Assembly: GCA_964291315.2 (NCBI GenBank)
Contig: OZ219753.1
Span: 704,001-768,000 of the forward strand
Length of the DNA: 64,000 nucleotides
Source of the DNA: Candidatus Poribacteria bacterium
Lineage (GTDB): Bacteria > Poribacteria > WGA-4E > WGA-3G
Direction of reading: 5' to 3'
Under the pieces are notes generated by a model. That model had not been told where the DNA came from. It saw nothing but the letters and a program-made list of their open reading frames with translations, and searched no databases. This document shows, in pieces, positions 20,716 to 29,724 of this stretch (positions are counted from its first letter, which is position 1; the number at the start of each line of letters is the position of its first letter). A program made the translations under genes and the position numbers.

Positions 20716-20983
20716 ATGTGTATAGAAGCCTGCACAGCGAAGAATACCGATGAATTGATGGGATATGAAGGCAGCGTCCGAGACCTCTACTATACCGCTT
20801 TCAACACCATCCTGACATTACAAACCCCTTGCAAACTTGCACCCGGTGCCCCTCGATAATCCTATTAACGCCGCAATCTCCTTCGGCAATTCATTGATGT
20901 ATGCCGCCTGTCTGACCGAAATCTATGGGACGCAGCTCAACCCAACCATCAGTTTCCTACACGAACCCGGCGACAGACATTGA
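20716..20983 (+). pseudogene. cas1: cas1 internal fragment (type I-B, Hmari/Tneap-like), frameshifted and truncated
   Basis: Frame 1: ...TDELMGYEGSVRDLYYTAFNTIL (stop 20857). +1 frame: [42 protein letters not shown] (stop 20981). These are diagnostic Cas1 motifs (LMGxEG, NxxISFGNSLx[13 protein letters not shown]). Confidence 0.88.
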
Positions 20984-21104
20984 TCGAACCCAGCAGAACG
21001 CACACGGCCAGCGAGTTTTAATAGAGCCCCGTGTAACATTGAAAAAATAGTGTTGAGACAGTTGATAAGGATCGGGTATAATATATTGATGGCTTCCATA
21101 AAGT
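20984..21104 (+). promoter_or_regulatory. Putative CRISPR leader with promoter
   Basis: AT-rich segment between the cas1 remnant and repeat 1; TTGAGA (21053-58)-18 nt-TATAAT (21077-82). Confidence 0.55.
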
Positions 21105-21382
21105 CTTTTAATCGAACCAGTATGGAATCAAAACTATTTACGAATCGAAACAGTATCTTATTGGCTGTGGCTTTTAATCGAACCAGTTTGGAATCAAAAC
21201 TCACTAGGTATGCCGAGCAGTGATAGTTGCATCCTTTATAATCGAACCAGTATGGAATCAAAACAAATGCGATACACTGAATAAGCCTAAGACAGCCTCC
21301 CTTTATGGAATTGAAACAATACCCCACCACCGGACAGTGCGGATCATCTAAACTTTTAATCGAACCAGTAAGGTTTAGTAAG
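21105..21382 (+). CRISPR. Degenerate mini-CRISPR array, 5 repeats / 4 spacers
   Basis: 30-bp consensus CTTTTAATCGAACCAGTATGGAATCAAAAC at 21105-34, 21171-200 and ~21234-64; internally deleted copy CTTTATGGAATTGAAAC at 21301-17; degenerate terminal copy from 21353. Unique spacers of 36, ~33, 36 and 35 nt. Next to the cas1 remnant. Confidence 0.9.
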
Positions 21383-21455
21383 CGATCTCTTACCTTTTTT
21401 CGGTATTTCGCGGTACACTTGGAAATTATAGATTTACAAAGGAGAATTTACCAGA

Positions 21456-21656
21456 ATGCTTTTCCTGCCTTCGTTGATTGTATTCATTGTAGCAAAGCGG
21501 CGGTGGCTGAAGGGCATCGCTGTGTTAATATTGGCTATTGGGTTATTGTCACAACCGGAGTCCGTATATTATAAACTTATTGCGATCGCAATTTTTTATC
21601 CAATCATCTATCTTATTGTCCGTTTTATTCGTAAGAAACTGGGAGAAAAGGGCTAG
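21456..21656 (+). CDS. Small hydrophobic membrane protein, 66 aa, unknown function
   Basis: Two or three hydrophobic segments with basic flanks (KRRW, RKKL); AAGGAG about 11 nt upstream. Could be a gene fragment. Confidence 0.45.
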   Translation: MLFLPSLIVFIVAKRRWLKGIAVLILAIGLLSQPESVYYKLIAIAIFYPIIYLIVRFIRKKLGEKG

Positions 21657-21684
21657 CAAATTTAACTGTGAAGCCTTTTCGGCG

Positions 21685-29100: not shown

Positions 29101-29271
29101 TTTGGGTTCTTGGAGGAAGTGTATGGTATTTCTGTGGAAGTGGTTAGCGGTTGTTTCCGCGAGGAATGCGTGTAGGTGTGGGAAGAGCGAGAGTTCTGAT
29201 GTTGCTGCGGTGTTGGCGCGGGTGTGTTGTATTTTCTGTAGGTAGCGGTTGGTGCGGGTGTGGAAGTCCAT
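26197..29271 (-). CDS. Type IIG / type ISP-like restriction-modification enzyme (nuclease-like N-domain, N6-adenine MTase, C-terminal specificity domain, no helicase)
   Basis: GRPDF...IGYIEAE, DMYAQTLAYGLFAAR, HFYETFLAAY, GVYYTP, ILDPATGTGGFL (motif I), GNPPY (motif IV), YRPFD, IGSYQVCEKWL. Confidence 0.88.
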   Translation of the reverse strand: MDFHTRTNRYLQKIQHTRANTAATSELSLFPHLHAFLAETTANHFHRNTIHFLQEPKHIEQIGRPDFVAIDGLLPIGYIEAESNRRDLNKLTGHAQEQNKRFTENLDNFILTNFVDFQLWTDGQLHAQARAGDGTANLEMLLERFLNAKPVQIATPEVLARYLARRTRELQVQVAAALTNENSNLYRMFSAFKELLLSTLTPADFADMYAQTLAYGLFAARCTLPNATNFSRHTAAGALPRSNPFLVQLFHQIASPTLEANVIYILDDIATLLRNVQTEMIRTAFSPGTHAEDPVIHFYETFLAAYNPERRVDRGVYYTPPQVISYIVRSIDSLLKTELGRSDGLADTDTLILDPATGTGGFLLAVLEQIQASVTSTYGSGEWAQYINGDLVRRIFGFELLVAPYTIAHLKLGLFLESQGWRADERLRIYLTNTLEQPQEMQSPLPFTEFISEEANAALSVKRDEPLLVILGNPPYKRHSLNPSRLKGKLTFIGELIEDYKQIDGVPLGEATSKALQDDYVKFIRWAQWHMDKNGEGIIGYIVSNNFLEAPTVRGMRQSLLNSFNTIYALNLHGSIIKQESVPDGQKDENVFDIQLGVTILLCVKHHNNPALAKVHYADLYGSRKEKYETLSQIDVQTTEWSELQPTSPHYLLVPQVTEHKTEYENGWQITDIFQASSIGVVTARDKLTIHRTAEDVRDTVTDFVSLPIEKAREKYGLPKDSQDWQVHLAQADLRNHPNTEQHIVPINYRPFDTRWTYYTGRSRGFHCRPRPAIMPHLRSENLALGTCRIVTGPVWQHALVTDTITENRYISNSGSESGHVFPLYLYPNPKELGLNTERSLNFKPTFLTALSGALDAQQVQPFQLPERVSPEQILAYLYALLHSPTYRKRYYDFLKYDYPRIPMPRNREQFHTLASLGQHLMNWHLLKDVEIPARHRFEGVGDGVVGKVRYVEGAVWMNATQYFTDVPPEVWAYKIGSYQVCEKWLRDRRGETLRHEEVRHYRAILVSIAETLTLMQQIDTILW

Positions 29272-29380
29272 ATGTTGTTTTGAGGTTAATCCTGTTTAGG
29301 TTGAGGTGGCACAGACGGCTCGTCTATGCTACAAGAAGTGTCTGGGCTACACACAATGGTTTATTTCTGACGTTTACGTT

Positions 29381-29409
29381 ATTATACGGGTTTTGGTGGT
29401 TAGGTGCAA
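29381..29409 (-). promoter_or_regulatory. Sigma70-type promoter of the R-M gene; a single REP unit (29308-29335) lies in its 5' UTR
   Basis: Minus strand TTGCAC-17 nt-TATAAT. Confidence 0.5.
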
Positions 29410-29488
29410 GTGTTTTCGGAATGTGTGTCCAGAAATTTTTCAAATTATAAGGAAGTAAGGTAGCGACATGTTCACACCGTTCACTTAT

Positions 29489-29724
29489 GCACAGGCTATC
29501 AGCCTATGCTAAAAGTGTGGATGCACAGGCTATCAGTCTATGCTAAAAGGGTCTTGCACAGACTGACAGTCTATGCTACAAGAGCTACTGCGCAGACTGC
29601 GAGTGTATGCTGCAAGTGTGGATGCACAGACTAACAGTCTATGCTACAAGAGGTACTGCACGGGAAACTGCTAGGTTATGCTGCAAGGGTTACTGCGCGG
29701 GAAACTGACAGTCTATGTTGCAAG
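29489..29724. repeat. Tandem array of 7 REP-like units (33-37 bp period)
   Basis: Consensus GCACAGACTGACAGTCTATGCTACAAG plus short linkers, all in the same orientation. Confidence 0.88.

Follow-up and report, generated by a model that had tools for sequence, protein, structure and literature searches.

The subject of this analysis is a chromosomal defense hotspot in a Candidatus Poribacteria bacterium (assembly GCA_964291315.2, contig OZ219753.1), situated within a stretch of 64,000 nucleotides (hereafter the window) in which the remnant of a locus of clustered regularly interspaced short palindromic repeats (CRISPR) and cas genes is followed by a Zorya type II operon and by a convergent, single-chain type IIG/IIL restriction-modification (R-M) gene. 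We consider it likely that these are three independent things gathered at a variable site, that the CRISPR wreck came later than Zorya, and that their adjacency is accidental. The locus reveals no new system and no new coupling; all of its parts are of known kinds, and their juxtaposition is peculiar to one genome. This genome (labeled G000 here) comprises 4.4 Mb in four contigs and is 95% complete; the window corresponds to C4:704001-768000, and coordinates are window positions unless C4 is given. A first-pass annotation of the same DNA had described a composite island made up of a cas1 relic, a CRISPR leader and array, a small membrane open reading frame (ORF), Zorya genes, an R-M gene and clusters of palindromic repeats. 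All of the parts that it listed are present in the sequence, with some boundaries corrected here.

A variable site between conserved flanks

Forty relatives were searched by DNA, and 14 loci from 13 relatives were then searched with 12 proteins. An apurinic/apyrimidinic (AP)-endonuclease-like gene and the HD, type IIG and heparinase-like genes recur together among the 40 relatives, while the DNA from the HD gene to the type IIG gene is variable. In the window, the conserved left flank is a gene for a SpoT-like HD protein (19891..20604, - strand; Pfam HD_4, E 1.7e-21), which shares 66-73% identity with the proteins of relatives, and DNA homology to the relatives on this side continues to about 20708. 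The conserved right flank is a heparinase II/III-like gene recognized by Pfam (29756..31900, - strand). The hotspot would be bounded by these two genes. Of the 14 loci, 12 have the HD gene; 10 have a full-length type IIG gene, two a fragment of it and two none. In four of these loci Zorya II has the type IIG gene as a neighbor, three of them at this site (G019, G008, G010) and one elsewhere (G024). In the latter (locus L034, G024:C1:850000-868000), Zorya II and type IIG lie together off the HD/heparinase site, and insertion sequence-like ORFs are found between zorB and zorE as well as next to the type IIG gene. As further cargo, relatives encode Laminin_G_3, AAA_15/AbiEii-like and Schlafen-AlbA_2 proteins here. 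The site resembles the defense islands or hotspots found between core genes in having conserved flanks and a cargo that differs among species (Zorya II, AAA_15/AbiEii-like, Schlafen-AlbA_2, AAA_35), but it differs from them in that one defense gene, type IIG, is nearly fixed.

CRISPR is not part of this cargo in the relatives. Cas1, Cas2 and the two relic pieces of the window were found in none of the 14 loci, nor were CRISPR-like repeats detected there by an 11-mer scan, applied to 96 loci with a detector that passed a positive control on the window. The scan flagged only L055, L062 and L095, and only L095 resembles a true array, with 20 repeats about 7 kb downstream of zorE. In most relatives the HD gene adjoins a divergently transcribed M81/MlrC peptidase gene. 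It is the position of this gene that the CRISPR relic occupies in the window, and the wreck would have taken the place of the peptidase gene; a search of the whole genome detected no M81 gene (best tblastn E 0.81).

A wider survey for Zorya II, by profile search with one genome per species, yielded 80 loci, in which zorA is followed by zorB and zorE on every contig long enough to show it. An HD gene is found upstream in four of the 80 and a convergent type IIG gene downstream in five, these five being four Poribacteria records and one 'uncultured bacterium'. In L043, the locus with the closest ZorA (58% identity), an M81 peptidase gene is followed by two AAA_35 genes, then by zorABE and a convergent type IIG gene. 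In no case was Cas1 or Cas2 encoded within 10 kb of zorA or an array present upstream of it. The link between array and Zorya envisaged in the first-pass annotation thus does not recur, the two being unlinked in relatives.

Taken together with the M81 peptidase gene, these loci suggest that Zorya II plus type IIG downstream of M81 is probably a recurrent and older arrangement. The CRISPR fragment appears to be a later arrival, since it is unique to this genome and sits exactly at the M81 position, and Zorya most likely predates it at the site. This would reverse the order given in the first-pass annotation, in which a CRISPR-cas locus had lost its cas genes and the site had then come to host other defenses; that history finds no support, as no relative has CRISPR-cas here.

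A decayed paralog of the resident CRISPR-Cas locus

The remnant begins with a cas1b pseudogene fragment (20724..20978, + strand, 255 bp), which covers approximately residues 140-225 of Cas1b and lacks both ends of the gene. Its pieces fall in two overlapping reading frames (20716-20980), and their translations match TIGR03641 (Cas1b, 324 positions) with E 7e-18 (model positions 179-221) and E 1.1e-4 (model positions 140-167). The ATG at 20716 is fortuitous, the cas1 homology beginning at 20724. Over 257 aligned positions the fragment shares 89.9% identity with the central part of the intact cas1b that this genome also has, and the alignment to this resident gene places two 1-bp deletions in the relic. 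The truncated type I-B cas1 reported at first is borne out by both the model matches and this identity. An apparent inserted A at 20825 and at 20851 in contigs from three sequencing runs of one study was dismissed, as it reflects the main-locus cas1 copy aligned onto the relic; the many apparent joints between these contigs and 16000-34000 fall at REP-like units or CRISPR repeats.

At 20978/20979 the cas1 fragment is joined directly to the proximal part of a CRISPR leader (20979..21104, + strand, 126 bp; 77% identity to the main-locus leader). The equivalent of ~970 bp of the main locus is gone at this junction, namely the 3' end of cas1, cas2 and the distal leader. As a whole, the segment 20978-21265 shares 77% identity with a resident stretch made up of the final ~130 bp of the leader and the first repeats. 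A promoter-like site in the leader (TTGAGA-18 nt-TATAAT, 21053-21082) matched the consensus at 11 of 12 positions in a promoter scan, and its -35 and -10 hexamers are kept in the window leader and the main-locus leader alike.

The leader is followed by a mini-array (21105..21383, + strand) with five repeats, three of them intact, and four spacers of 34-36 nt each. The intact 30-nt repeats (R1 21105-21134, R2 21171-21200, R3 21235-21264, all + strand) are 90-100% identical and spaced 64-66 nt apart, so that the series has at least three near-identical repeats with unique spacers of similar length, as a CRISPR array does. By eye, the fourth repeat (~21301-21317, + strand) has lost ~13 internal bases and retains 17 nt, and the last one, which starts at 21353 (+ strand), is truncated after about 21 nt, where homology ends (~21373). 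Leader and array are retained, as had been claimed. No functional cas genes adjoin the mini-array, which is an orphan rather than part of a complete CRISPR-Cas locus. None of its spacers has a second copy anywhere in the genome, and no protospacers for 21130-21356 were found in phage or plasmid collections or in the rest of the genome, a viral contig collection lying outside the scan.

A complete type I-B operon, cas6-cas8b-cas7-cas5-cas3-cas4-cas1-cas2, is located at C4:1.94-1.96 Mb; the main array of 34 repeats (C4:1950194-1952402) lies downstream of it, followed by csm1 and csm2 of type III-A. This main I-B/III-A locus (C4:1941384-1965000, loci L009 and L010) is 1.2 Mb away from the mini-array. 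A 25-nt repeat core is present in three copies at the mini-array and in 34 at the main array, and the core of the mini-array is that of the main array's distal repeats. The main array itself has two repeat variants, the leader-proximal block ending in ...GGAATCGAAAC and the distal block in ...GGAATCAAAAC, and a degenerate repeat-like sequence stands immediately upstream of its 125-bp proximal leader. Matches to the repeat/cas1 family of the relic occur in 38 of the 64 other genomes of the genus. Because the relic is closer to the genome's own cas1 (90%) than to the best foreign cas1 among these 64 genomes (81%), and because the repeat is the same, the remnant in the window is, judged by sequence, a decayed paralog of the resident I-B adaptation end together with an orphan array. 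It would be what is left of a second type I-B adaptation end, paralogous to the I-B/III-A locus and reduced by at least four deletions.

Solitary CRISPR repeat-like sequences were also seen at C4:2414187-2414216 and C4:2527933-2527962, each with three mismatches to the 25-nt core and no surrounding array. These look like further CRISPR debris, which would not be confined to the island.

Orphan CRISPR arrays that are served in trans by a distant cas locus are a known phenomenon. The mini-array is like them in having no functional cas neighbors while sharing its repeat with a complete I-B/III-A locus on the same chromosome, and in keeping the promoter-like site of its leader. It differs from them in being very small and decaying, with the stump of a cas1 pseudogene still attached. 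We suggest that the mini-array could be transcribed from the retained leader promoter, and that the resident Cas6 would cut the three intact repeats, releasing two to three usable CRISPR RNAs (crRNAs) in trans for the I-B and III-A effectors.

The Zorya operon and its probable promoter

The Zorya operon consists of zorA (21744..23879, + strand; 711 aa, with a MotA-like membrane part and a long tail), zorB (24193..25149, + strand; 318 aa, with an N-terminal transmembrane helix and an OmpA-like peptidoglycan-binding part) and zorE (25146..25988, + strand; 280 aa), whose TTG start overlaps the zorB stop. PADLOC matches bear out the type II assignment for each of the three products, with E 2.6e-78 for ZorA2 over residues 8-611, E 5.9e-70 for ZorB2 and E 1.5e-39 for ZorE2, the last being encoded as an HNH nuclease directly after zorB. 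In Pfam, ZorB scores 27.6 bits for OmpA (cut-off 27.2), and its transmembrane helix carries a conserved Asp (SISDVM), which we take to be the plug/ion Asp. By eye, the HNH motif of ZorE (CxxC...HAHH...N...CxxCH) is intact. ZorA scores 24.2 bits for MotA_ExbB (cut-off 22.9), and its core matches PDB 8vvi with E 1.3e-38. A 120-bp tandem duplication at 23332-23603 (2.0-2.3 copies, 93% matches) lengthens the ZorA tail by 40 aa in frame; L043, which has the closest homolog, carries one copy of this segment.

In the published account, ZorA5B2 is described as a peptidoglycan-anchored, ion-driven 5:2 motor with a long ZorA tail that senses infection at the envelope; upon infection, the motor recruits or activates the HNH nickase ZorE at the membrane and DNA is nicked (PMC11890865). 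The residues expected under this model are found in ZorB and ZorE of the window. The gene order, the Asp of ZorB, its OmpA-like domain and the HNH motif of ZorE are all shared with the described type II system (PMC11890865, 8vvi), from which the window operon differs by a 313-nt, REP-filled spacer between zorA and zorB, by the 40-aa duplication and a missing N-terminal hydrophobic segment in ZorA, and by a C-terminal extension of ~100 aa in ZorB that is common to some relatives. The operon is canonical and apparently intact.

A promoter-like TTGCTT-17 nt-TATAAT (21685..21713, + strand) was recognized by eye 30 nt upstream of zorA; it falls below the threshold of the promoter scan. The same layout, again by eye, is seen upstream of zorA in L043, G019, G008 and G010, where a T-rich spacer separates a -35 of the TTGxCT type from a -10 of TATxxT. 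The upstream DNA shows no significant homology to that of the relatives, the promoter layout alone being alike. Zorya would be transcribed from this promoter of its own. Between 21383 and 21744 there is no convincing intrinsic terminator (weak folds, z -1.4 and +0.7), and read-through from the leader toward zorA is therefore possible. A look for RNA runs covering 20600-26200 turned up none. A functional dependence of Zorya on the CRISPR leader seems improbable to us, because zorA has its own promoter-like site and because Zorya II works from its native promoter in E. coli (PMC11890865).

A small membrane protein gene upstream of zorA

A 66-aa ORF (21456..21656, + strand) lies between the array and zorA and encodes a small membrane protein of a conserved family of unknown function. 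Its description as a co-oriented transmembrane ORF holds, given a Shine-Dalgarno sequence (AGGAG, by eye) and four homologs with 52-80% identity and 31 invariant positions among 5.8 billion clustered proteins. It probably is a real small membrane protein. A match to the SA1362 family (E 0.037) was rejected. The ORF is present in three of the 64 other genus genomes; the neighbors of the closest of these homologs (75%, G062) are TPR, WD40 and IS1595 transposase genes, and neither Zorya nor CRISPR lies close by. As none of the 80 Zorya II loci has the ORF within 10 kb of zorA, and it was absent from the 14 syntenic loci of relatives, the small protein is, by association, not a Zorya or CRISPR accessory as far as these comparisons reach.

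A type IIG/IIL enzyme without a translocase

The R-M gene (26197..29271, - strand; 1024 aa) is convergent to zorE. Its product matches the PADLOC model REase_MTase_IIG over the full length (E 1.3e-241), as well as N6_Mtase, Eco57I and the recognition domain Type_ISP_C (E 2e-85) in Pfam, and carries an S-adenosylmethionine (AdoMet) motif plus NPPY, the motifs of a gamma-class N6-adenine methylase. The N-terminal 290 residues gave no alignment to any solved chain by sequence. They hold a PD...EAE motif that is conserved in all five full-length homologs aligned, and which we take to be a putative variant of the PD-(D/E)xK-type nuclease motif. A putative nuclease part is assigned from this conservation.

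The first-pass label of a convergent type IIG/ISP enzyme stands in its orientation and in type IIG and fails in ISP. Type ISP enzymes have a superfamily 2 helicase-like translocase between nuclease and methylase; no helicase family was found by Pfam in the window enzyme, which is therefore classed as type IIG/IIL. The type ISP enzymes LlaBIII and LlaGI (4xqk, 5ffj), from which it differs in having no helicase/translocase part, were matched in the methylase and target recognition domain parts only (E 1.2e-44 for LlaBIII). The best full-length solved relative is 7lo5 (1029 aa), to which residues 297-995 align with E 2e-42. The enzyme is like this MmeI/DrdV kind of IIL/IIG enzyme in length (1024 against 1029 aa) and in its methylase and recognition domains, and differs in an N-terminal motif that reads PD...E-A-E rather than E-x-K.

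The type IIG gene has another copy at C4:1364620-1367841, with 89% DNA identity over the full length; the longest open frame there is 600 aa, and this copy is probably broken. Many relatives carry two to five type IIG paralogs.

Palindromic repeats in the spacers

The intergenic spacers from zorA onward contain units of a 27-32-nt imperfect palindrome. Short imperfect palindromes in many intergenic copies, often clustered, are the mark of repetitive extragenic palindromic (REP) sequences and their REPIN forms, and the units of the window fit this description. We call them REP-like because no REP-associated tyrosine transposase (RAYT; Y1 transposase, PF01797) was found in this 95%-complete genome, by a search whose positive control was found in six of 14 genomes. 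Genome-wide, nhmmer gave 140 matches, 12 of which lie in 24004-29725, all on the + strand; these agree with the REP clusters reported earlier at the junctions from zorA onward. The 10-kb bin of the genome with the highest density corresponds to window positions 26000-35999 (10 matches). Within the island, a hairpin cluster (23929..24130, + strand) lies in the 313-nt zorA-zorB spacer and folds at -54.2 kcal/mol (z -2.8), a second cluster (26029..26165, + strand) lies between the convergent zorE and R-M genes, and one solitary unit plus an array of about seven (29306..29725, + strand) are located upstream of the R-M gene.

A near-identical stretch of ~50 nt (GCTTGATAATTAGT...GGAGGCACAGGAAACCGACAG) was seen on the 5' side of both the cluster after zorA and that after zorE (23929-23985 and 26029-26078), which suggests that stretch and REP-like cluster form a larger composite repeat unit. 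In the loci scanned from relatives and Zorya homologs, REP-like units occur in nine of 38, and between zorA and zorB in none. The hairpins would have spread into the spacers of the island after its other parts were in place. As a conjecture, these units may affect the stability of the zorA message relative to that of zorBE.

Genes beyond the island

The limits of the island, 20.7-29.7 kb, are about right, since the genes farther out are housekeeping genes (dxs, xseA, ymdB-like, STAS and amidohydrolase). Amid these, a 421-aa ORF at 13051-14316 (- strand) has no Pfam match and lies in a stretch of low guanine plus cytosine (GC) content (0.40-0.43) with reversed GC skew.

Competing explanations

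The model of the first-pass annotation, in which decay of a CRISPR-cas locus native to the site made room for Zorya and the R-M gene, and the leader came to read into zorABE and contribute to its expression, draws on the shared orientation of leader, array, small ORF and zorABE, on the leader promoter-like site with 11 of 12 consensus positions, and on the want of a convincing intrinsic terminator at 21383-21744. Yet CRISPR-cas is at the site in none of the 14 relatives' loci, where Zorya and type IIG are found in several, the 80 Zorya II loci have neither Cas1, Cas2 or the small ORF near zorA nor an array upstream, and zorA, like that of relatives, is preceded by a promoter-like site of its own; we regard the model as unlikely. 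We likewise give little credence to a coopted leader, whereby a single transcript from ~21090 would carry the mini-array, the 66-aa ORF and zorABE, Cas6 from the distant locus would trim crRNAs off its 5' end, and the effectors of the resident I-B and III-A systems would go on receiving crRNAs from the orphan array. If this were true, Zorya expression would be tied to the CRISPR leader promoter and to Cas6 processing. Very improbable indeed is a role of the 66-aa protein as an accessory or replacement part of Zorya, for instance in supplying the N-terminal membrane helix missing from this ZorA. The ORF is co-oriented with zorA and 87 nt upstream of it, and this ZorA begins ~24-35 residues later than four of six compared homologs. 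Against such a role, the ORF is not near zorA in any of the 80 loci, its G062 homolog has no Zorya nearby, the ZorA of G024 also has no N-terminal segment and yet no 66-aa ORF accompanies it, and no sequence likeness to the ZorA N-termini of relatives is seen by eye. The idea of a split-off ZorA N-terminus was rejected for the first three of these reasons.

Another explanation, possible although we doubt it, is that the CRISPR piece was never a full locus here, and that a fragment, which may have included the 66-aa gene, came in through illegitimate recombination, by copying or transfer, and is inert, its RNA absent or unused. The fragment does end abruptly, at 20709-20723 and about 21373; the two solitary repeats elsewhere point to scattered CRISPR debris, and no protospacers were found in the phage and plasmid collections. 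The genome is also smaller than those of most relatives (4.4 Mb as opposed to 4.3-6.7 Mb, most being >5 Mb), which fits frequent deletion. However, three repeats and the hexamers of the promoter have survived intact despite the 10% divergence and the frameshifts of cas1, and the internal deletion between cas1 and leader is easier to understand as the decay of a longer piece.

Our preferred reading, of three independent things with the wreck arriving after Zorya, has points against it as well. Identity to the relatives is 33-63% for the Zorya proteins, as compared with about 70% for the HD and type IIG proteins, and the cassette may have come by exchange and not by descent at this site, which weakens the order that puts Zorya first. 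With one genome per species, the comparison holds no close relative with an intermediate state. The spacers matched no protospacer in phage or plasmid collections or in the genome itself, and the expression of array, small ORF and Zorya is predicted only. Two of the Zorya products also depart from expectation. ZorE scores 79.8 bits with the NCBIfam model NF041791, far under the curated cut-off of 600 bits, so that its assignment is based on PADLOC and the HNH motif. ZorA has no N-terminal hydrophobic segment of the kind (~24-35 residues) seen in four of six homologs (G019, G008, G010 and L043), and we infer its integrity from the fact that one other homolog (G024) is also without it.

Implications

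The comparisons describe a genus-wide defense hotspot in bacteria of the sponge-symbiont type, in which type IIG is nearly fixed and Zorya II is recurrent. Within it, the remnant in the window offers a well-resolved example of the birth of an orphan array, with a paralogous I-B adaptation end that would have been trimmed by deletions and its cas1 stump still attached. The locus is of use as annotation and could serve as a test case in two respects, for orphan arrays that act in trans, and for the effects that REP insertion and the duplication of tail length may have on Zorya.

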